Shown here: in pieces, positions 44,068 through 64,000 of the stretch
Numbering within the stretch: the first letter of the stretch is position 1
How the letters are laid out: each line of letters begins with the position of its first letter
DNA from: an uncultured Alphaproteobacteria bacterium
GTDB lineage: Bacteria > Pseudomonadota > Alphaproteobacteria > Rhizobiales > Beijerinckiaceae
Assembly (NCBI GenBank): GCA_963824475.1
Contig: CAWGPR010000003.1
Coordinates: 10,737 to 74,736 of the forward strand
Length of the DNA stretch: 64,000 nt
Direction of reading: 5' to 3'
Program-made: the position numbers and the translations under genes
The notes under the pieces: model-generated
Databases searched by the model: none
Told to the model about the DNA's origin: nothing
What the model saw: only the letters and a program-made list of their open reading frames with translations

Positions 44068-45312
44068 ATGGATGCGAAAGATGCGATGCTGGCGGAGCTG
44101 AGGGCTCGGAACCCAGGTCGAAGCCTGGGGCAAAAATTCTACACCGACCCTGATTTCTACCGCCTCGACCTTGAAACGATCTTTTATCGAGATTGGCTGT
44201 TCGCCGGCCACGATTGCGAGATACCGGCGCCCGGCGATTATTTCACTCTGCAGATTGGAGACTATCCGATCATTGTCCTGCGCGGCGCCGACGGAACGAT
44301 ACGCGCCCTCCACAATTCCTGCCGGCATCGCGGTTCGCGCATATGCGCAGCCCCAAAGGGCGCGGTGAAGCGCCTCGTATGTCCTTATCATCAGTGGACC
44401 TACGATCTTGCCGGGGGATTGATCCGCACGCGTCACATGGACGCAGCGATCAACAAGACGCAGTTCGGGCTCAAGCCCGTCCACTGCGAAAGCGTCGGCG
44501 GTTACATCTTCGTGTGCGTTGCGCCCGTTGCGCCAAGTTTCGAGCCCTTCCGAGCCCAGGCGGAAAGATATTTATCGCCGCACAAGATCGCCGACGCGAA
44601 AATCGCCTTTGAGAGCACGATCGTTGAAAACGGCAATTGGAAGCTCGTCTGGGAAAACAACCGCGAGTGCTACCACTGCGCGGGGAACCATCCGGAACTC
44701 TGCCGGACGTTCCCCGAAAAGCCGACGATATCCGGAATAGATGGCGTTGTTAGCGATCAGGAGATCAAGGCTCACTGGAATCGATGGGAGGCCGCGGGGC
44801 TGCCCAGCGTCTTCCTGCTCTCCAACTCGGGGCAGTTCCGCACCAGCCGAGTTCCGCTTCTAGACGGAGCGGTCAGCTATACGATGTCCGGGCGCGCCGC
44901 CGTCGCCCGACCGCTCAGCGACAACGTTATCGAGCCTCGCGTCGGATCGCTGTTGCTCTTCCACTATCCCTCGACCTGGAATCACGTGCTGGGCGACCAC
45001 GCCGTCAGCTTCCAGGTTCTCCCGCTCGGTCCGATGCAGACGCAGGTCCGGACCAAATGGTTGGTTCACAAGGAGGCTGTCGAGGGAAAAGACTATACGA
45101 TCGAGGAACTGACCCACGTTTGGCTCGCGACCAACAGCCAAGACCAGCGCGTGGTCGAAGAAAACCAGATCGGCATTCGCTCGCCCGCTTATGAACCCGG
45201 ACCCTACGCGCCCGATCATGAGGACGGGGTCACCCAATTCGTCGACTGGTACTGCCGGACGATGCAGCGCGGGCTCGGCGGCGCCCAGGCCAGCATCAGT
45301 CGCGTCGCCTAG
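44068..45312 (+). CDS. Rieske [2Fe-2S] non-haem-iron oxygenase alpha subunit (GbcA/Stc2-like)
   Basis: Rieske CRHRGSRIC...CPYHQWTY. Catalytic-domain NNRECYHCAGNHPEL. Confidence 0.85.
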   Translation: MDAKDAMLAELRARNPGRSLGQKFYTDPDFYRLDLETIFYRDWLFAGHDCEIPAPGDYFTLQIGDYPIIVLRGADGTIRALHNSCRHRGSRICAAPKGAVKRLVCPYHQWTYDLAGGLIRTRHMDAAINKTQFGLKPVHCESVGGYIFVCVAPVAPSFEPFRAQAERYLSPHKIADAKIAFESTIVENGNWKLVWENNRECYHCAGNHPELCRTFPEKPTISGIDGVVSDQEIKAHWNRWEAAGLPSVFLLSNSGQFRTSRVPLLDGAVSYTMSGRAAVARPLSDNVIEPRVGSLLLFHYPSTWNHVLGDHAVSFQVLPLGPMQTQVRTKWLVHKEAVEGKDYTIEELTHVWLATNSQDQRVVEENQIGIRSPAYEPGPYAPDHEDGVTQFVDWYCRTMQRGLGGAQASISRVA

Positions 45313-45321
45313 AGCTCGGGC

Positions 45322-45625
45322 TTCGACAACCAGCGCGCGAGTTCCCCGCAAGCAACCGCCAATAAGACCCACCCAAATGCGCCCAAGCGCTAGCAAAATA
45401 GCTGGCGTTTACGAGCGTTTATTTTTCAGAATCGAGCCTTCTCAAAGGGTTGCGGGCGAAAAAATAAGGAAATCTCTCCTCCCTCTTCCGCTCGCGCGAC
45501 GGGTTGTGGTCAGCAAGTTTTCAAACAGCCACGCCTCTCGTCTCCCGGCCTGGCAGGCTCCGAACGGGAGGAGATTCCGCCTATCTGAATACTTATAGCG
45601 TCGATTTCCGATTTTGTCAAGAGAA
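45322..45625. repeat. Copy A of an about 300 bp diverged inverted repeat (candidate sRNA or regulatory module; transcribed sense is the minus strand)
   Basis: The reverse complement aligns block by block with 50219-50510: CTTGACAAAA..GAAAT...CGCTATA, GGCTGTTTGA, CCACAACC, TTTCCTTATTT, CTCGATTC.GAAAAATAAACGCT, GGTGGGT.TTATTGGCG.TTGCTTGC, CTCGCGCGCTGGTTG. Confidence 0.8.
45592..45620 (-). promoter_or_regulatory. Sigma70-type promoter TTGACA-17 nt-TATAAG (minus strand) inside repeat copy A
   Basis: Forward CTTATAGCGTCGATTTCCGATTTTGTCAAG. On the minus strand this is TTGACA, a 17-nt spacer, then TATAAG. It points toward the 3-prime end of the Rieske gene, and no ORF follows it. Confidence 0.55.
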
Positions 45626-45777
45626 AGTCGCTGTCGCTCCTTCCGTCCGAGAGCGATCTGACTGGGGCGCGCGACGCGCCCCGTCTCCCGCCAGCGCCGA
45701 ACACAATCTTCCGATCGGGGCGCCCCGCCTCGAATTCGACCCAAAAGCAGGACGCGCCAGAACGCTCCGGACTGGTT

Positions 45778-46104
45778 TCAGTGGCTTGCCGCCAGCGCTT
45801 CGAGCCTCCCGATGAGGGCCTCCGGATCGCCCGAAACCGCGACCTGCTTGAGCCGGCTCTTCGCGCCGGCGACAACGCGCGCGCTGGAGGCAGGGATGTC
45901 CAACCGTTCCGCCAACAGCGCGCACAGGGCTTCATTGGCTTCGCCCCCTTGCGGAGCGCTGCGCACGCGCGCCGCGAGCACAGAGGACCCGTCGGCAAGA
46001 TGAGCCACGCCGTCGATCGCGTCGCGTCCGCCCTTCGGCGTCAGGCGGCAGGAGACGACGACGCCGTCCTTCGTCCTGCGCCAGGGCGCGCGGTCGCCCG
46101 TCAT
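45778..46104 (-). CDS. DUF167 (YggU-like) family protein
   Basis: VSCRLTPKGGRDAIDG...ARVRSAPQGGEANEAL..LLAERL....VVAGAKSRLKQV matches the DUF167 pattern. 4-nt overlap with xerD. Confidence 0.8.
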   Translation of the reverse strand: MTGDRAPWRRTKDGVVVSCRLTPKGGRDAIDGVAHLADGSSVLAARVRSAPQGGEANEALCALLAERLDIPASSARVVAGAKSRLKQVAVSGDPEALIGRLEALAASH

Positions 46105-47051
46105 CCGGGTTCGCCCTCGTCGTTCATGGGATGCAGATCGCGCACCATCGCCTTGGCGCGCTCGTCAAGCACATGCGTATAGATCTGCGTCGTCGCGATG
46201 TCGGCGTGGCCAAGCAGATCCTGAACGACGCGCAGGTCGGCGCCGTTCTGCAATAGATGACTGGCGAAGGCGTGGCGAAGCACGTGCGGGCTCACGCGCG
46301 CGGACGCAATTCCCGCGGCTGCGGCGACGCGCTTGAGATCGCGAGCGAAGGCCTGGCGCGTCATATGGCCGCTCGCGCTCTCGGCGGGAAACAGCCAAGG
46401 GCTTGCGGCCGCGCCCTGCGCGGCTTGATCGAGCAGGGCGCGAAACACGCCGATCGCGGCGCGGGCGGGTCCGGAGAGCGGCGCCAGGCGCTCCTTATCG
46501 CCCTTGCCGAGCACGGGGATGAGCGGCGACTTGGCGGTTGCGATCAACTTCTTGAGGCTCAAGGCTTCCGACACGCGCAGGCCAGATCCGTAGATGAGCT
46601 CGATGAGACAAGCGACGCGCGCCGTCTCCAGCCGCTCGCGGAGCCGGCGCTCCGCGACATCGAGCCCCTCGCGCGCGGTCGCGATCAGGCGCTCGACCTC
46701 AGCCATGCTCAACAGCTTGGGCAACGGGCGCGATCGGCGCGGACCCTCGACCGCCAGCGTCGGATCGTCCCGCCGCCAGCCTTCCGCATAAAGAAACTTG
46801 TGAAACTGACGGATCGCCGACAGACGGCGGGCAAGCGACGCGGCGCTCAGCTTCTGCGCGCCGCGGGCGGCGAGAAACCCGCGCACGCCGGCTGCGTCCG
46901 CCTTTAGCGCGTCGATCCCCTTAGCGTTCAGATAGGTTTCGTAGTCCGCGAGGTCTCGCCGATAGGCCTCGATCGTATTCACGCTCGCGCCGCGCTCGGA
47001 GGCGAGCGCCTCGAGGAAGCTCACGATGTGAGAAACCCTCCGCGTCTTCAT
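46101..47051 (-). CDS. xerD: Site-specific tyrosine recombinase XerD
   Basis: FLEALASERGASVNTIEAYRRDLADY N-domain. Catalytic GLRVSEALSL...HVLRHAFASHLL...LLGHADIATTQIYTHV. Confidence 0.85.
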   Translation of the reverse strand: MKTRRVSHIVSFLEALASERGASVNTIEAYRRDLADYETYLNAKGIDALKADAAGVRGFLAARGAQKLSAASLARRLSAIRQFHKFLYAEGWRRDDPTLAVEGPRRSRPLPKLLSMAEVERLIATAREGLDVAERRLRERLETARVACLIELIYGSGLRVSEALSLKKLIATAKSPLIPVLGKGDKERLAPLSGPARAAIGVFRALLDQAAQGAAASPWLFPAESASGHMTRQAFARDLKRVAAAAGIASARVSPHVLRHAFASHLLQNGADLRVVQDLLGHADIATTQIYTHVLDERAKAMVRDLHPMNDEGEPG

Positions 47052-47059
47052 AGGGCAGC

Positions 47060-48100
47060 CTACTCCTCCCCGTTCTCGAACAGGGTCGGATGTGACCCTT
47101 CGCGGCGCGGTTCGGCGAGGCCGAGATGGCGGAAAGCGTGCGACGTGAGGAATTGTCCGCGCGGCGTGCGCTGCACAAAGCCGAGTTGGATGAGATAGGG
47201 CTCGATGATGTCTTCGATTGCGTCGCGGGGCTCGGACAGAGCGGCGGCGATCGTCTCGACGCCGACCGGACCGCCGCCGAACTTGATCGCGATCGCGTCG
47301 AGATAACGTCGATCCATCTGATCAAGCCCGATCGCGTCCACGTCGAGCAGCTTGAGCGCCCTGTCGGCAAGCGCGCGCGTGACGCTCTTTGCGCCTTCGA
47401 CCACGGCGAAGTCGCGCACGCGCCTAAGCAAGCGCCCGGCGATGCGGGGCGTGCCGCGCGAGCGCTTGGCGATCTCGTTCGCGCCGTCATCGGCAAGGAC
47501 GAGGCCGATCACTCTGGCGCTGCGCGCGACAATCCCCTGCAGCTCTTCGGTGGTGTAGAAATTTAGCCTAATCGGAATGCCGAATCGGTCGCGCAACGGG
47601 GTGGTGAGGAGCCCGGCGCGGGTCGTCGCGCCGATCAGAGTGAAGCGAGCGAGATCGATCTTCACCGAGCGCGCCGCTGGTCCGGCGCCGATGATGAGGT
47701 CAAGCTGGAAATCCTCCATCGCCGGATAAAGGATCTCCTCCACCGCCGGATTGAGGCGATGAATCTCGTCGATGAACAGCACGTCGCGCGGTTCGAGATT
47801 GGTGAGCTGCGCCGCCAGATCACCCGCCTTGGCGATGACCGGGCCCGAAGTGGAGCGGAAATTGACGCCGAGCTCGCGCGCAACGATCTGGGCCAATGTC
47901 GTCTTGCCGAGGCCGGGCGGACCGACGAACAACACGTGATCGAGCGCGTCGCCCCGCGCTTTGGCGGATCGGATGAAAACGCTGAGATTCTTGCGCGCCG
48001 CTTCCTGGCCAGCGAAGTCGGTCAGGAACTGCGGGCGAACCGGCGTGTCGTCCTCGGGACGCTTATCGGCCGAGACAAGCCGGCGAGGAGCCTCGGCCAC
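47060..48100 (-). CDS. ruvB: Holliday junction branch migration DNA helicase RuvB
   Basis: [54 protein letters not shown]. Confidence 0.97.
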
Positions 48101-48142
48101 GTTAGCGACCTTCGCGCGCGAAGAAGGGACGAGGCCGCCCGG

Positions 48143-48526
48143 TCATCGCGATCCCTTGGGGATATAGACGACGCCGGGCAGCTTCGCGAAATGCGCCTCG
48201 CAGGTGAGCAGATCGGCGTCCATGTCGACGGCCGTTGCATAGATGATCGCATCGGCCATCGCGAGCGCATGATCGCGGGCGATTTCAGCCGCTTCAAGCG
48301 CAAGCCGTGTGGTTAAGGCAGTCACGACGCATTGAGTGGAAAATGCAATCGTGTCGTCGGCCGCGTCTTCCGAGACCTCCCGCGTCAGGCAACGGGCCAG
48401 TTCATATTGCACGATCGTCGGGACGATCCAGCCTTCCTTCGGCGGGATCTCCCTACCAATGGCGCGGCCGACCGCGCTGTCAGCCAGCCATTCGAGCCAT
48501 GCCGAGGTGTCGACGACGCGCATCAA
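48143..48526 (-). CDS. vapC: PIN-domain toxin VapC
   Basis: RVVDTSAWLEWL start with the acidic D, ...DAIIYATAV...LLTCEAHF. About 125 aa. Start is probably the ATG at 48523, overlapping the vapB stop. Confidence 0.8.
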   Translation of the reverse strand: MMRVVDTSAWLEWLADSAVGRAIGREIPPKEGWIVPTIVQYELARCLTREVSEDAADDTIAFSTQCVVTALTTRLALEAAEIARDHALAMADAIIYATAVDMDADLLTCEAHFAKLPGVVYIPKGSR

Positions 48527-48734
48527 TATCGATCATTGCGGTCGCGGTAATTCTCGAAATTGGCGCCGCGGGCGATGCCCACGAGCTCCTCGCGTTCCGG
48601 CACACGAACCATCAACACGCCCTTGCCCTTGTCGATGAACGCGATCTTCTGACCGGGCCGCCAAGCCAAGCGTTCACGTAGCGCCTTGGGGATTGAGCCT
48701 GGTATTTCGACGAAAGCTTCGATGTACCGGTCAT
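48523..48734 (-). pseudogene. vapB: AbrB/SpoVT-type antitoxin VapB; frame broken by a 1-nt deletion near 48695-48699
   Basis: MTGTSKLSSKYQ is in one frame. SIPKALRERLGWRPGQKIAFIDKGKGVLMVRVPEREELVGIARGANFENYRDRNDRY-stop is in another. One added base gives the canonical KYQ(V/A)SIPKALRE looped-hinge motif. Confidence 0.7.
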
Positions 48735-48776
48735 TTTTTACCCTTCACCCATCGATCATGATACCGCAAAATTGGG

Positions 48777-49391
48777 TCACTGCGCCAGTTCCTTGAGGCC
48801 TGCGCGAACGAGCGCGGCGGTCTCGGCCGCCGGTCCGAGCTGAGCGGAAATCCTGGCGACAGCCGCGGCGGCCTGAGGCTGGGCGTAGCCGAGGCCGACA
48901 AGGGCGAGGACCGCGTCCTCCGCGGCCTTGGCGAGCTTGGGCGCGCGCTCGAAACCCGCCTCCGTGTGGGCGAAATCGGCGGCGGCGAGCGCCAGCGCCT
49001 TGTCCTTGAGCTCGAGCACGAGGCGCGCGGCGAGCTTCGGGCCGACGCCTGGCGCGCGCGCCATCATCGCCTTGTCCTGCCGCGCGACCGCCGCGCTCAA
49101 CGCCTCCGCCGACAGAGCGCCGAGGATCCCGAGCGCGACCTTGGCGCCGACTCCCTGCACGCTTTGCAACAGGCGAAACCAATCGCGCTCGCTGGCGGTC
49201 AGGAATCCGTAAAGCCTGATCGCGTCTTCTCGCACATGCGTCTCGATCAGCAGCTCCGCCGGCTCGCCGGCCGCGGGCAGCGCGCGCAACGTCCGGGCCG
49301 AGGCGGAGACGAGGTAACCCACGCCGTTGACGTCGAGGATCAGGACCTCTTCGTCCACGCTGTCGACGACGCCCTTGAGCTTGCCGATCAT
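48777..49391 (-). CDS. ruvA: Holliday junction branch migration complex subunit RuvA
   Basis: MIGKLKGVVD....LILDVNGVGYLV...LQSVQGVGAKVALGIL...APGVGPKLAARLVLELK. Confidence 0.95.
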   Translation of the reverse strand: MIGKLKGVVDSVDEEVLILDVNGVGYLVSASARTLRALPAAGEPAELLIETHVREDAIRLYGFLTASERDWFRLLQSVQGVGAKVALGILGALSAEALSAAVARQDKAMMARAPGVGPKLAARLVLELKDKALALAAADFAHTEAGFERAPKLAKAAEDAVLALVGLGYAQPQAAAAVARISAQLGPAAETAALVRAGLKELAQ

Positions 49392-49399
49392 GCCGCGCC

Positions 49400-49443
49400 T
49401 TTACAGTCCGCTGCGATTCGGTCGAATCGCAGCGGACTGTAAA
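49400..49443. repeat. Perfect 44-bp palindrome (21-bp arms, 2-nt centre) at the ruvC/ruvA junction
   Basis: TTTACAGTCCGCTGCGATTCG-GT-CGAATCGCAGCGGACTGTAAA. It contains GATTC and GAATC next to the centre, and overlaps the last codons and the stop of ruvC. Confidence 0.9.
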
Positions 49444-49994
49444 TTCCTTTGATCTCGCGCGCTTCTTCGCGAAAAACCGGCCTCCACTTTTTCGCGGCGC
49501 GCTCTCGCCCGCGCAGCGCGATGCTGGGCGTGGCAGATGGCGACCGCAAGCGCGTCAGCCGCGTCCGGAGTCGACGCGGTCGAGGCGGGCAACAGCATCC
49601 TCACCATCATCGCCACCTGCCGCTTTTCCGCGTGCCCGACGCCGACGACTGTCTTCTTGATGAGGTTGGCGGCGTATTCCGCCACCGGCAGGCCGGTCAA
49701 AGCCAATGTCGCAAGCGCGACCCCGCGCGCCTGCCCGAGCTTCAGCGCCGATTGCGGATCGCGGTTGATGAACGTCTCCTCGATCGCCGCCTCATGCGGC
49801 CCCTCGCGTTCGATGAGCCCAGTCAGCAAGCGATGGATCGCCGCCAGGCGCTCGGCGAGCGAAGTCGCGGCGTCGGTCTCGATCGAACCACAGCCGACGA
49901 AGCTCAGCCGCGACCCGGCGGCTTCGATCACGCCCCAGCCGGTCGCGCGCAGGCCGGGATCGACGCCGAGAATGCGAATCGCGCCGAGACTCAT
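49401..49994 (-). CDS. ruvC: Crossover junction endodeoxyribonuclease RuvC
   Basis: IRILGVDPGLRATGWGVIE...DAADALAVAICHA. Start taken at ATG 49994. The C-terminal tail runs into the palindrome. Confidence 0.9.
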   Translation of the reverse strand: MSLGAIRILGVDPGLRATGWGVIEAAGSRLSFVGCGSIETDAATSLAERLAAIHRLLTGLIEREGPHEAAIEETFINRDPQSALKLGQARGVALATLALTGLPVAEYAANLIKKTVVGVGHAEKRQVAMMVRMLLPASTASTPDAADALAVAICHAQHRAARARARREKVEAGFSRRSARDQRNLQSAAIRPNRSGL

Positions 49995-50218
49995 GGGACG
50001 TTTGATATACGAATTCACGCGTGAACGCATTTGGCGCGCAGCTCTCATGGCGTTCGTTGTCGGTAGCGGTGGGTTCGGGGGCGTCATCCCCCGGACTATG
50101 ATCCCGGCGCATGACGCCAAAGGCTCGGAGGCGAGAGCCCAAAAAGGCCGGCCAACGGCTACCGCGATAAGAGCCCTACAAAGCCCGCCGATAGCAAAAG
50201 CTGTCGATAGCGAATTGG

Positions 50219-50510
50219 CTTGACAAAAGCAGAAATGTGCGCTATACGATTCTTATGGGCAGAATCCGATCCGCGCTTGGCCGGCGGCTGGGCGAGGAGA
50301 AGAGAAGCCCACGGCTGTTTGACACGTCCGTCCACAACCTATCGAGCGAGTCGGGGCGCTTGGCGGTTTTCCTTATTTGAATCGGCTGTAACTCATTGAA
50401 AAGTCTCGATTCGGAAAAATAAACGCTAGCAAATTTACTAGCGTTTAGGCGCGTTTATGTGGGTTTTATTGGCGTTTGCTTGCATGGAGCTCGCGCGCTG
50501 GTTGAATCCG
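50219..50510. repeat. Copy B of the about 300 bp diverged inverted repeat (transcribed sense is the plus strand)
   Basis: See copy A. Contains the hairpin AAACGCTAG-CAAATTTA-CTAGCGTTT (50420-50445). Confidence 0.8.
50220..50248 (+). promoter_or_regulatory. Sigma70-type promoter TTGACA-17 nt-TATACG inside repeat copy B
   Basis: TTGACA at 50220-50225, spacer AAAGCAGAAATGTGCGC, TATACG at 50243-50248. A GAATC site lies about 15 nt downstream, and it is conserved in copy A. Confidence 0.55.
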
Positions 50511-50653
50511 GGCCTCGCGCGGCCCGTTCCGGGGCCTGGCCGGCAAATCGCGTCCCTTTCCACCGACATTTGTGTTGGCCCATCTTGGCTCACCAGCCGC
50601 GGCTGCGATAACCTGCCAATGAACGAACTGGCTTTCGTCTTAAAGGAGCGGCA

Positions 50654-51307
50654 TTGAAGACGACGAAGAAGAAGGTCGCCCCGCCGCCGCTTCCCCCGAC
50701 CACGCCCCATTTCGATTTCGAGCGCGAGGCGTTCGCGAGCGGCCATCGATGGGTCGCCGGCGTGGACGAGGTCGGGCGAGGCCCGCTTGCCGGGCCGGTC
50801 GGAGTGGCCGCGGTCATTCTCGATCCCGACGATCTGCCCGAGGGGCTCGACGATTCGAAGGTGCTGCCCGCGCCCACGCGCGAATCCTTATGCGAAATCA
50901 TCTTCGCCAAGGCGCTCAGCGTCTCTGTCGTTTTCGCCAGCGTCGAGGAAATCGACCTCTTCAACATCCGCGGCGCCGCGCTTCGCGCAATGGCGCGGGC
51001 GGTGGCGGGCTTAAGCCTGCGTCCTGACTTTGCGCTGATTGACGGCCGCGACTTGCCGGATGGCCTCATCTGCCCGGCGCGCCCGATCATCGACGGCGAC
51101 GCCCTCTCGATGTCGATCGCCGCCGCTTCCATTGTCGCCAAGACAATGCGCGACGCGCTGATGCGCAACCTCGGCCGCGACTATCCGCAGTACGGTTTCG
51201 AGGAGCACGTCGGCTATGCGACCGTCGGACACCGGAGGGCGCTGGCGTCCGCAGGCCCGTGTCCGTACCACCGGCGCTCGTTCCGGCTCGAGCCGGAAAA
51301 AGAATGA
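50654..51307 (+). CDS. rnhB: Ribonuclease HII
   Basis: VAGVDEVGRGPLAGPV...DDSK...IAAASIVAK. TTG start behind AGGAG. Confidence 0.9.
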   Translation: MKTTKKKVAPPPLPPTTPHFDFEREAFASGHRWVAGVDEVGRGPLAGPVGVAAVILDPDDLPEGLDDSKVLPAPTRESLCEIIFAKALSVSVVFASVEEIDLFNIRGAALRAMARAVAGLSLRPDFALIDGRDLPDGLICPARPIIDGDALSMSIAAASIVAKTMRDALMRNLGRDYPQYGFEEHVGYATVGHRRALASAGPCPYHRRSFRLEPEKE

Positions 51308-51406: not shown

Positions 51407-52687
<1,281 letters not shown>

Positions 52688-61917: not shown

Positions 61918-62763
61918 ATGACCGCGATCCCTCCCCTCGTTCGCGAGCCCGACGCCGGGGGACGCCCGCGCGTTCTCGCCATGGCGAACCAGAAGGGCGG
62001 GGTTGGCAAGACAACCACCGCCATCAACCTTGGAACCGCGCTCGCCGCGATCGGCGAGCGGGTCCTCATCATCGATCTCGATCCCCAGGGCAACGCCTCG
62101 ACGGGCCTCGGAATCGATCGCAAATCCCGCGTGACCTCGAGCTACGACATGCTGGTCGGAGAGCGGTCGTTGCGCGACGTCGTCATTCCGACCTCGGTGC
62201 CGCGCCTCTTCATCGCCCCCTCGAGCATGGATCTTCTCGGCGTCGAGCTCGAAATCGCTGGGCACGAGGACCGCTCCTATAAGCTGCGCAACGCGCTGCG
62301 CAGCTACGGCACCCCCAATCCCGAGAACCCGGAAAGCGTCACCTATGTCCTGGTTGATTGTCCGCCGTCGCTCAACCTGCTCACCATCAACGCTCTCGCC
62401 GCCGCCGACGCCGTCGTCGTCCCGCTGCAATGCGAATTCTTCGCGCTCGAAGGCCTGTCGCAACTGTTGACGACGGTCGAACAGGTTCGCAGCACGCTCA
62501 ATCCGGGCCTGACGATCCACGGCGTGGTGCTCACCATGTACGATCCCCGCAATAGCCTGGCCGGCCAGGTGGTCGCGGACGTGCGCGCCTACATGGGCGA
62601 TAAAGTCTACGAGACGGTCATCCCCCGCAATGTCCGGCTCTCTGAGGCACCTTCGCACGGCAAGCCCGCGCTGCTTTACGATCTCAAATGCGCCGGCAGC
62701 CAAGCCTATCTCAAGCTCGCGTCCGAAGTCATCCGGCGCGAGGGTCGTTGGCGCGCCGCCTGA
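61918..62763 (+). CDS. parA: Chromosome partitioning ATPase ParA
   Basis: LAMANQKGGVGKTTTAINL deviant Walker A, IIDLDPQGNAS, LVDCPPSL. Confidence 0.95.
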   Translation: MTAIPPLVREPDAGGRPRVLAMANQKGGVGKTTTAINLGTALAAIGERVLIIDLDPQGNASTGLGIDRKSRVTSSYDMLVGERSLRDVVIPTSVPRLFIAPSSMDLLGVELEIAGHEDRSYKLRNALRSYGTPNPENPESVTYVLVDCPPSLNLLTINALAAADAVVVPLQCEFFALEGLSQLLTTVEQVRSTLNPGLTIHGVVLTMYDPRNSLAGQVVADVRAYMGDKVYETVIPRNVRLSEAPSHGKPALLYDLKCAGSQAYLKLASEVIRREGRWRAA

Positions 62764-62795
62764 CCACACGCTCGATTGAAGGAGCCCAAAGAGCT

Positions 62796-63683
62796 ATGGC
62801 CGAAGACGTAAGCCGGGCCATCGAAAATCGCCCTCGCCTCGGGCGCGGATTGGCGGCGTTGTTGGGAGGCGCAAACGCACCGCATGCCGAAGGCGCGCGC
62901 GGCCCGCGTCAGACGCCGATTGAATTCTTACGCCCAAATCCGCGCAACCCACGAAAGCGGTTCGACGATGCGGAGCTTGATGAACTCGCCGCTTCGATCA
63001 AGGAGCGCGGAATTATCCAGCCGGTCGTCGTGCGCGCCATTTCCGGCGCATCGGATCTTTTTGAAATCATCGCCGGCGAACGCCGCTGGCGAGCGGCGCA
63101 GCGGGCAGGGCTGCACGAGATCCCGGTCATCATCGTTGACGCAGGCGACCGCGAAGCGCTCGAAATCGCCATCGTCGAAAACGTGCAGCGCGCCGACCTG
63201 AACGCGCTCGAGGAAGCCGCCGGATACGCGCAGCTGCGCGAGACTTATGGATATTCGCACGCCGACATCGCCCGCGTCGTCAGCAAAAGCCGAAGTCACG
63301 TCGCCAACACCTTGCGACTGACCAATCTGCCCGAACACACCCGTAGCCTTCTGGCGGGCGGCACGATTTCGGCCGGGCACGCGCGCGCGCTGCTCGCAGT
63401 TTCCGACCCCGACGGGCTCGCCGACCGCATCGTCGCCGAAGGCTTGACCGTCAGAGACATCGAACGCTTCGGCGGGAATTCGGGCAAGACAACACGGCCG
63501 CGAAAAGGAACTGAACCGGTCGATGCTGACACGCGCGCGCTTCAGGACAAGCTTGCGCTGGCGCTTGGGACAAAAGTGACGATCCGGCACGGCGGCGAGA
63601 GCGGCGAGATTCGCGTCGCCTTTCGCAATCTCGATCAGCTCGATGACTTCTGCCGCCGACTGTGTCAGCCGGCGGAGGGCTAG
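62796..63683 (+). CDS. parB: Chromosome partitioning protein ParB
   Basis: LGRGLAALL, PNPRNPRK, QPVVVR...FEIIAGERRWRAA. GAAGGAG RBS before the ATG at 62796. Confidence 0.95.
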   Translation: MAEDVSRAIENRPRLGRGLAALLGGANAPHAEGARGPRQTPIEFLRPNPRNPRKRFDDAELDELAASIKERGIIQPVVVRAISGASDLFEIIAGERRWRAAQRAGLHEIPVIIVDAGDREALEIAIVENVQRADLNALEEAAGYAQLRETYGYSHADIARVVSKSRSHVANTLRLTNLPEHTRSLLAGGTISAGHARALLAVSDPDGLADRIVAEGLTVRDIERFGGNSGKTTRPRKGTEPVDADTRALQDKLALALGTKVTIRHGGESGEIRVAFRNLDQLDDFCRRLCQPAEG

Positions 63684-63706
63684 AGCGAGATGCGGTCGGA
63701 TGGAAT

Positions 63707-63797
63707 CGTCATCGCGAGGAGCGAAGCGACGCGGCGATCCAGAGCTGCCGCTCCGGCCCTTCATCCCCTGGATTGCTTCGCTTCGCTCGCAATGACG
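63707..63797. repeat. REP-like imperfect palindromic element downstream of parB
   Basis: The left arm CGTCATCGCGAGGAGCGAAGCGACGCGGCGATCCAG pairs with the right arm CTGGATTGCTTCGCTTCGCTCGCAATGACG across an about 25-nt spacer. Resembles the CGTCATTGCGAGCGAAGCGAAGCAATCCAG-type repeats I recall as dispersed in related alphaproteobacterial genomes. Confidence 0.7.
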
Positions 63798-64000
63798 AGC
63801 CTGGTTCGACCTCATCACATCACGCTCTAGTAGCCCGCTGGGTTGGGATTGACGCGCTTTCCTGCCCGCTGTTGTCCACGCCTTGCGCCTCCCTTTTGCT
63901 CGACGGCTCCGGCGTCGGGTCGGCCGCGCCGCATGGCCTCGTGATTTCGGACTTTGACAACCAACGCGCGAACTCCCGAGCCAGCAAACGCTAATAAACG

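Follow-up and report, generated by a model that had tools for sequence, protein, structure and literature searches.

Two inverted repeats flanking the ruv-xerD genes are independent members of a large dispersed non-coding family in Roseiarcus-like Hyphomicrobiales

Results

Two inverted copies of a non-coding element at the ruv locus

We analysed a 64,000-nucleotide stretch of DNA from an uncultured alphaproteobacterium (assembly GCA_963824475.1, contig CAWGPR010000003.1, positions 10,737 to 74,736 of the forward strand; hereafter the window), in which two diverged copies, A and B, of a non-coding element of ~300 bp lie in opposite orientation on either side of the block ruvC-ruvA-vapB-vapC-ruvB-xerD-DUF167. 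An initial annotation of this DNA had interpreted them either as a pair of paralogous small RNA (sRNA) genes or as remnants of, or substrates for, an inversion of the enclosed 4.7-kb block. Instead, there is solid evidence that both arms belong, independently of each other, to a large, dispersed family of non-coding repeats in Roseiarcus-like Hyphomicrobiales. This family of ~300-bp repeats is characterised by a conserved promoter box, an array of short units that varies in number, polar placement at gene ends, and at least one recent and precise insertion.

The inverted similarity of roughly 70 % that had been estimated by eye for 45322-45625 and 50219-50510 was confirmed by formal alignment. 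The reverse complement of 45300-45640 gave a single collinear match to 50200-50530 (blastn; 71 % identity, 315 columns, 20 gaps, E 8e-37), in which 45625 down to 45322 on the minus strand is aligned with 50219 to 50510 on the plus strand, and MAFFT recovered every block that had been listed as shared. A search for inverted repeats returned arms of 85 nt at 84 % and of 52 nt at 81 % identity; the two long conserved blocks of copies A and B have no other occurrence in the window and are not predicted by chance. Both copies open with CTTGACAAAA...GCTATA(A/C)G, that is, TTGACA, 17 nt and then TATAAG or TATACG, and both are AT-richer than their surroundings, as had been observed before (GC content of 0.53 in copy A and 0.51 in copy B, against 0.65 in the window).

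The gene layout also agrees with the earlier description. Copy A is located between the convergent 3' ends of the DUF167 gene (45778-46104, minus strand) and a Rieske gene (44068-45312, plus strand) and has no open reading frame (ORF) to serve, which makes a stand-alone transcription unit a reasonable reading, and copy B, located between the divergent ruvC and rnhB (50654-51307), is oriented toward rnhB. Furthermore, a third copy on the minus strand is interrupted by the end of the window (83 % identity over 41 nt by blastn). The features are as follows:

45313-45625, minus strand: copy A, extending from the -35 region as far as the final inserted base beside the Rieske stop codon (nhmmer, 205 bits, model positions 16-360; right junction set from the empty sites in relatives)
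45592-45620, minus strand: predicted promoter of copy A, with TTGACA (45620-45615), a 17-nt spacer and TATAAG (45597-45592) (sequence and family conservation)
45383-45472, minus strand: AT-rich core of copy A, with T-run, GCAACCCTTTGAGAAG, CGATTCTGAAAAATAAACGC and a degenerate second hairpin (GC 0.47; fold)
45327-45382, minus strand: degenerate 10-nt units and 3' end block CTCGCGCGCTGGTTG of copy A (sequence)
45626-45760, minus strand: GC-rich 135-bp segment co-inserted with copy A, with two GC palindromes, outside the family consensus (comparison of filled and empty sites; GC 0.69)
50210-50510, plus strand: copy B (nhmmer, 241 bits, model positions 32-372)
50220-50248, plus strand: predicted promoter of copy B, with TTGACA (50220-50225), a 17-nt spacer and TATACG (50243-50248) (sequence and family conservation)
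50367-50447, plus strand: AT-rich core of copy B, in which the second hairpin TAAACGCTAGCAAATTTACTAGCGTTTA spans 50420-50447 (GC 0.37; folds; terminator-like call on the minus strand, 50447 to 50420)
50448-50504, plus strand: 10-nt units of copy B (GGCGCGTTTA and similar) and 3' end block CTCGCGCGCTGGTTG (sequence)
63958-64000, minus strand: 3' end of the third copy, downstream of parB (nhmmer model positions 281-361)
45778-50030, minus strand: the flanked block ruvC-ruvA-vapB-vapC-ruvB-xerD-DUF167, given as context and outside the element (ORFs; Pfam in syntenic loci)

A dispersed family in Roseiarcus-like genomes

A collection of species-representative genomes was scanned with one exact 20-mer from the core of the element (CGATTCNGAAAAATAAACGC), and up to 8 kb was retrieved for each locus (locus labels L031, L040, L104 and so on). 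The scan yielded at least 103 loci, ~95 of which hold unmistakable homologues, next to a few chance matches in unrelated phyla. Among the matches listed, the true copies derive from ~20 metagenome-assembled genomes (MAGs), labelled Roseiarcus sp. or, in the case of those from one soil survey, 'uncultured Alphaproteobacteria', with at least 10 copies in one MAG and 6-8 in several others. Judged by RuvA homologues, the window also belongs to the Roseiarcus clade. A family profile run with nhmmer found 100 strong copies among the matches listed, 78 of which extend from the promoter to the 3' end; the conservation counts given below refer to 77 aligned full copies. Thus, with a third copy in the window and many more in other genomes, the two arms are neither a unique pair nor paralogous sRNA genes tied to the ruv block, and belong to a dispersed family of at least about 95 true members. 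No blastn match to the element was found in plasmid and phage collections, and a literature search for core sequence strings and for Roseiarcus repeats returned nothing relevant; the family appears to be undescribed.

Anatomy of the element

As judged from the column-conservation profile, similarity among the copies extends from ~10 nt ahead of the -35 element to GGTTG(y)(r), and a full copy comprises, in this order, a promoter, a 5' region, an AT-rich core, 10-nt units and an end block. The promoter is predicted to be of the sigma-70 type. Its family consensus, TTGaCA, 17 nt and TGnTAtA with an A-rich spacer (AAAnCnGAAA), fits the alphaproteobacterial consensus CTTGAC-N17-CTATAT, and the promoter that had been recognised in both window copies is conserved family-wide. 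The T, T and G of the -35 element occur in 75, 74 and 50 of the 77 copies, respectively, and the T, G, T and A of the extended -10 element TGnTA in 55, 71, 68 and 75; key positions are 90-97 % conserved and adjoining ones vary. The 5' region (100-130 nt) is highly variable, rich in insertions and deletions and unconstrained. It is followed by the core (~100 nt), which is laid out as T-run, GAATCGG, ccGTAACCCATTGAAAAGtc, CCGATTC, GGAAAAATAAACGCTAGTAAA, loop and TTTACTAGCGTTTA, then by 2-6 units of the form nnnGCGTTTA, whose number differs between copies (copy B has one unit fewer in the window than in L104, a 99 %-related strain), and, in ~60 % of copies, by the GC-rich end block ..TTCGCGC...GGTTG. 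The core is the most conserved part, with a mean pairwise identity of 0.83, against 0.65 for the 10-nt units, 0.56 for the promoter and 0.41 for the 5' region. The element ends carry no terminal inverted repeats; the left member of the sole inverted pair, CACAACC..CGCGAG / CTCGCG..GGTTGTG, is internal, sitting ~110 nt into the element on the downstream side of the promoter.

The GANTC sites shared by copies A and B had been regarded as conserved and as possible targets of CcrM/GcrA-type control. Across the family, a GANTC site follows the -10 element in just 26 of the 77 copies and the GAATC of the left core arm is present in 36, and a third site falls within the 20-mer used as search pattern, so that its conservation carries no information. 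Control by CcrM/GcrA is therefore unsupported, since the sites are not conserved. The gene after rnhB (51464-52687) encodes a CcrM-type N6-adenine methyltransferase (N6_N4_Mtase and RAMA in syntenic loci), and on account of this neighbouring gene the organism probably does methylate GANTC, even though the sites of the element are not conserved.

Diverged relatives of the element were also observed (L040:6195-6365, L031:6920-7105, L108:832-1076 and L109:804-1059). They keep the promoter and a core of the form GTAACCC(A/T)TTGAAAAG..GATTC, and their short tandem units are quite different, among them GGAAATGAAA (L040), GGAAATCCAA and CGAAAG (L108 and L109). As these relatives share the core and differ in the array, a core motif with an adjacent tandem array constitutes the deeper conserved design.

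A semi-conserved module, ..aACAGCTAACGCnATAAGAGCC.., is found ~15-45 nt upstream of the -35 element in ~15 copies (for instance at window 50150-50200, upstream of L040:745, and in L049, L077 and L039), in three loci preceded by ..GGCCATGACGGCTCAyGGCAGAATTCCCG... The module may mean that the element reaches further at its 5' end, or it may belong to another repeat family associated with it.

Placement relative to neighbouring genes

The 3' end of the element is closely tied to gene ends: 28 of the 45 copies with a GGTTG end lie between -42 and +57 nt from the stop codon of a convergent gene, and no comparably tight spacing to genes exists on the 5' side. Convergent contexts are over-represented, with 29 cases against 10 divergent ones. 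An enrichment of particular gene families downstream of the element was considered and rejected, as the co-directional neighbours, assigned by eye, look like unrelated housekeeping genes (PPase, pyrB, P450, cupin, SDR, lipA and others).

History of the two copies at the ruv locus

The order ruvC-ruvA-vapBC-ruvB-xerD-DUF167, together with the converging Rieske gene, is kept in five relatives with RuvA proteins 90-99 % identical to that of the window, and none of them has an inverted ruv block; in a sixth locus, L106, the assembly is frameshifted and DUF167 was not called. In three of the five (L105, L108 and L109) rnhB is directly divergent from ruvC, in L104 an insertion sequence (IS) separates the two genes, and in L107 this side is rearranged. 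The state of the two sites is as follows:

Window: RuvA 100 %; copy A site filled; copy B site filled
L104: RuvA 99 %; copy A site filled; copy B site filled, with an inserted IS and an extra, partial copy
L105: RuvA 97 %; copy A site empty (17 nt); copy B site filled
L107: RuvA 92 %; copy A site empty (16 nt); copy B site rearranged, rnhB not adjacent
L108: RuvA 91 %; copy A site empty (17 nt); copy B site with a diverged relative of the element
L109: RuvA 90 %; copy A site empty (17 nt); copy B site with a diverged relative of the element

At the four empty copy A sites the stop codons of the two converging genes are 16-17 nt apart (e.g., TGAaagcagtccggacggcgCTA in L108). The insertion in the window measures 448 bp (45313-45760) and lies between an intact 17-nt spacer and the Rieske stop codon, with no target-site duplication at this one resolved junction pair; its first 135 bp were matched only in the window and L104 when all loci were searched by blastn. 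The copy B site of L108 and L109 holds a very diverged relative that retains GTAAC(C/G)CACTGAAAAC. Hence, the two copies were gained at different times: copy A was inserted after the window lineage had split from the relative with the 97 %-identical RuvA, and copy B is older. Their inverted orientation around the ruv block is therefore incidental.

Orthologous copies in different species are 0.76-0.97 identical in the core, compared with 0.72-0.94 at synonymous sites of the adjacent genes, and the identity of the 5' region falls to 0.31. Thus, copies are long-lived, with a core that is constrained or homogenised by conversion. Copies have also been hit by other mobile DNA: in L104 an IS5-type element occupies the CTAG of the second hairpin, and the copies in L041 and L079 are interrupted by other ISs.

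Beside copy B, L104 contains a second, partial copy (L104:7556-9361), which lacks the promoter and after which the 130-nt downstream flank is repeated. The IS5-type element (DUF4096 and DDE_Tnp_1) interrupts this partial copy at the hairpin CTAG, and the core of the partial copy resembles the L105 allele and not that of the window. It may reflect a strain-chimeric assembly or an old tandem duplication.

Hairpins, RNA structure and coding capacity

The core of a typical member folds into two hairpins (z about -7.9), and 87 % of the proposed core pairs are formed, as opposed to 27-46 % in slid controls. Over the full transcript, single-sequence folds of the window copies were no better than those of shuffled sequences (z -1.3 and -0.75), and RNAalifold on the 77 copies gave essentially no consensus structure (-0.15 kcal/mol). 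Rfam returned zero matches for the whole window at the gathering threshold, and at E <= 10 it returned only chance-level hairpin matches for both window copies and a typical member, so that the comparison with Rfam proposed by the initial annotation produced no real match.

A T-run, TTTATTTTTCC, follows the second hairpin exclusively on the strand opposite to the promoter. On this strand, the typical member folds into a 17-bp stem succeeded by the T-run, and a terminator scan made a call for copy B, in which TTTTTCCGAA comes directly after the hairpin on the minus strand. Diverged subfamilies retain a hairpin with a T-rich tail at the position of the second hairpin, despite quite different sequences. 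Judged informally, the second hairpin is better supported by these subfamilies than by covariation.

Further readings were discarded. An excess of A·C over G·U mismatches of ~3 to 1, from which a transcribed strand might have been deduced, is an artefact: in every helix, one arm falls within the search pattern and is thereby kept from varying. A sigma-54 reading of TGGCGTTTGCTTGC fails by eye, as its GG-to-GC spacing is one base short. Likewise, the hydrophobic peptide readable in the 3' part and the reverse-strand peptide ..DNQRASS..NAPKR* reflect nucleotide conservation and not conserved frames; a six-frame check for small ORFs found neither a conserved reading frame nor a conserved start codon across the family. 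Moreover, the variable 5' region shows no guide-like relation to its surroundings: on neither strand does it match its own flanks in excess.

Discussion

Our sequence comparisons make it fairly probable that the family represents a semi-mobile, polar transcription module, which would both emit a short non-coding transcript of its own and terminate converging transcription. In such a scheme, the promoter of the element would drive a transcript of roughly 190-300 nt through the core. The second hairpin, because its T-run is found on the opposite strand only, would serve to stop, as an intrinsic terminator, the transcription that enters from the 3' side, that is, from the neighbouring convergent gene. 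New copies would come from rare insertion or duplication events and would afterwards be retained through speciation, their core being under constraint; the opposite orientation of copies A and B around the ruv block is a coincidence.

Several results weigh against this interpretation. A strict sigma-70 scan called no promoter in either window copy because position 6 of the -10 hexamer is not T, and the promoter call therefore rests on family conservation rather than on the scan. Part of the apparent invariance of the core is forced by selection, since the 20-mer used to retrieve the copies lies inside it. The second hairpins of the window copies are degenerate (fold z -0.2 to -3.4), covariation in the core hairpins amounts to two compensatory cells, equal to shuffles, and for a long-range helix between the 5' and 3' parts the energy of cognate duplexes equals that of non-cognate ones (p 0.72). 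As compensatory covariation was lacking in every proposed helix, which is also the outcome of the covariation check suggested by the initial annotation, the core may act at the level of DNA just as well as at that of RNA. No intrinsic terminator is evident on the forward strand, which makes any transcript length a guess. Furthermore, a dedicated terminator role predicts a biased orientation in co-directional contexts, in which 26 antisense and 20 sense copies reveal no real bias. With respect to mobility, the insertion that brought copy A carries 135 bp of unrelated DNA, no autonomous parent occurs in the 103 listed loci of up to 8 kb, and neither target duplication nor terminal inverted repeats were found.

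Other explanations have to be considered in the light of the same data. The initial proposal of sRNA genes may be extended to the entire family as multicopy trans-acting sRNA genes, each specifying an RNA of ~250 nt with the core as protein-binding or scaffold module and the variable 5' region conferring specificity. This would account for a promoter kept at a fixed distance from the core, for the many copies, including copy A, that have no downstream ORF to serve, for a core more conserved than synonymous sites, and for the U-rich and A-rich stretches around the core hairpins. However, Rfam offers no match above chance level even at E <= 10, covariation backs no helix, and a same-strand intrinsic terminator is missing, the T-run being on the other strand; the 5' region, in addition, evolves faster than synonymous sites, hence provides no conserved seed, and is unrelated to its own flanks. 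To our knowledge, tens of paralogues per genome are also unprecedented for a trans-acting sRNA. We allow this proposal a modest chance. We are slightly more doubtful about an architectural or protein-binding element acting at the DNA level, similar to the bacterial interspersed mosaic elements (BIMEs) or RIPs, whose core would bind a nucleoid protein at gene 3' ends and for which the promoter-like motif would be secondary; candidate binders are IHF, a MucR-type or GapR-type protein, or gyrase. An IHF-like site, TTTCAATGGGTTA, on the reverse strand (consensus WATCAANNNNTTR) together with phased 10-bp T-tracts, units with a 10-bp period and variable count, a core GC content of 0.37-0.47 in a 65 % GC genome, the location at gene 3' ends with enrichment in convergent contexts, and complementarity that is maintained as sequence without covariation are all in line with it. 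It leaves unexplained why promoter positions are kept at 90-97 % with a 17-nt spacing ~130-150 bp upstream. The IHF-like match is low in information, and diverged subfamilies swap the sequence of the 10-nt unit entirely, which misfits a single conserved DNA-binding protein.

An outside chance is given to a self-transcribed, non-autonomous mobile RNA gene, in which the core, as a stem-loop displaying GUAACCCAUUGAAAAG plus the adjacent hairpin, would serve as scaffold for an enzyme acting in trans (e.g., a reverse transcriptase, a recombinase or an RNA-guided nuclease) that would copy the unit or insert it precisely after stop codons without target duplication. If true, this would constitute a bacterial system resembling short interspersed nuclear elements, or an RNA-dependent insertion system. 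The inversion of the 4.7-kb ruv-xerD block, in contrast, is refuted by the comparison with relatives. The copies are indeed inverted and flank the block, and homologous inverted repeats can in principle mediate such an event, but order and orientation are kept in the five relatives, with rnhB and the Rieske gene on the same sides wherever they were called. Copy A is missing from four relatives with the same block orientation, so that the pair did not exist when the arrangement was set, and arms that share only 71 % identity are ill suited to homologous recombination. A small-protein or type I toxin-antitoxin locus encoding a short hydrophobic peptide, such as ..GAFxWVLLAxACxELARWL, appears hardly tenable at all. 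Type I loci are multicopy, intergenic and promoter-bearing, and a similar hydrophobic peptide can be read in one frame from the 3' part of both window copies; its start codon, however, is not conserved between A and B, and in typical members the same region is the array of 10-nt units, with TAG and TAA stops. As the unit number varies, the reading frame shifts, leaving no family-wide frame.

Among known repeats, the transcription module that we favour seems, by analogy, most like the Correia elements and the palindromic repeats of gene 3' ends (REP, BIME, RIP and Br-REP). Correia elements of Neisseria (CREE or NEMIS) adjoin genes, alter neighbouring transcription and termination, measure 100-155 bp and possess 26-bp terminal inverted repeats and a TA target duplication. 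Like them, the present family is small, non-coding, multicopy, intergenic and promoter-bearing and has an IHF-type site, if only as an IHF-like match; in contrast, it is ~300 bp long and includes 10-nt units in variable number, terminal inverted repeats are absent, and the one resolved insertion shows no target duplication. Dispersed palindromic repeats with possible roles in termination or at messenger RNA ends, located in 3' intergenic or convergent positions, include the repetitive extragenic palindromes (REPs), BIMEs and IHF-binding RIPs of enterobacteria, and Br-REP1 and Br-REP2 of Bradyrhizobium, which were reported in 3' untranslated regions (PMC5082802). The present family shares the 3' and convergent location, but it has no palindromic unit of 20-40 bp. 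Whereas a REP unit is a palindrome of ~35 bp without a promoter, the unit described here is a polar composite of ~300 bp with a conserved promoter and an asymmetric 20-nt loop, GTAACCCATTGAAAAG. The possibility of a common dispersed REP without the promoter part, which had been set against the sRNA proposal in the initial annotation, accordingly holds for the dispersal, but not for the promoter, which belongs to the repeat.

Non-autonomous, dispersed copies with an internal tandem repeat of varying number are also reminiscent of BrickBuilt of Porphyromonas gingivalis, which is presented as a minisatellite-containing MITE (a miniature transposable element with inverted repeats; PMC4596501). Small non-coding dispersed copies and insertion polymorphism were indeed observed in our family. 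The defining features of MITEs, namely terminal inverted repeats, target duplication and a related IS, were not found in the loci compared here. Apart from the secondary ISs in L041, L079 and L104, no transposase gene splits the halves of any copy in the 103 loci of up to 8 kb. The palindrome-associated transposable elements (PATEs) of the IS200/IS605 type have hairpins and a fixed polarity and integrate next to a specific short sequence. Hairpins, polar insertion (at one resolved site) and the lack of both target duplication and terminal inverted repeats recall these elements. Neither TnpA (Y1) nor TnpB was seen beside any copy by crude gene calling and reading of the flanks, genomes not being searched, no clear short motif is conserved in the left flanks, and the single resolved junction provides no target tetranucleotide. 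The family further differs from PATEs in having no Rfam match of the omega-RNA type and no guide-like relation of its variable region to the flanks. An IS200/IS605-type origin is conceivable, but no cognate gene supports it. The alphaproteobacterial sRNA families alpha-r14/NfeR1 and alpha-r15/AbcR, finally, are likewise promoter-bearing, intergenic, non-coding and present in several copies in Rhizobiales. They comprise 2-8 copies, with covariation-supported hairpins, same-strand terminators and Rfam models, whereas our family, for which sequence evidence indicates a promoter of its own, exhibits none of these features and exceeds that copy range. We file it among the dispersed repeats, rather than as a MITE, a REP or a classical sRNA gene.

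If the favoured interpretation is true, Roseiarcus-type bacteria, abundant members of acidic peat and soil communities, would hold at least tens of portable promoter-plus-terminator cassettes that rewire transcription at gene ends. At the ruv locus, rnhB would then be preceded by a promoter-like box that comes from copy B, and the 3' end of the Rieske oxygenase gene would be faced by an antisense promoter that comes from copy A. The family also offers a natural series for studying the birth, upkeep and decay of repeats, as it includes old orthologues, recent insertions, changes in unit number and subfamilies with swapped hairpins. For annotation, its recognition prevents individual copies from being read as locus-specific regulatory RNAs or recombination scars.

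Further observations in the window and its relatives

A perfect palindrome of 21+21 nt at window 49400-49443 (TTTACAGTCCGCTGCGATTCG / CGAATCGCAGCGGACTGTAAA) comprises the last ruvC codons and the stop codon, just before ruvA, and contains two GANTC sites. The hairpin at the ruvC end is also present in L108 and L109, with compensatory changes on both arms; L106 and L107 are without it, and their ruvC call extends into the ruvA start codon. The palindrome looks like a structured insertion and possibly represents an attenuator, a terminator or a REP. Between ruvA and ruvB, the window and the five relatives contain a vapBC-type pair (48143-48740 in the window), composed of a MazE-like antitoxin and a PIN protein. 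An extra ORF of ~185 amino acids without a Pfam match is situated between vapC and ruvB in L107 (11248-11805), L108 (11248-11808) and L109 (11248-11805).

Toward its end, the window contains parA and parB (61918-63683), and mnmE and mnmG (gidA) are found nearby in a syntenic relative (L105:1-1146), from which we conclude that this region probably lies close to the chromosomal origin. Window 63690-63810, between parB and the third copy, is occupied by a long GC-rich palindromic repeat, ..cgtcatcgcgaggagcgaagcgacg...cgcttcgctcgcaatgacga..; we take it to be of the kind that gives rise to spurious 'CFASLAMT' ORFs in Bradyrhizobium-like genomes. This probable near-origin region holds three copies of the element within 19 kb.

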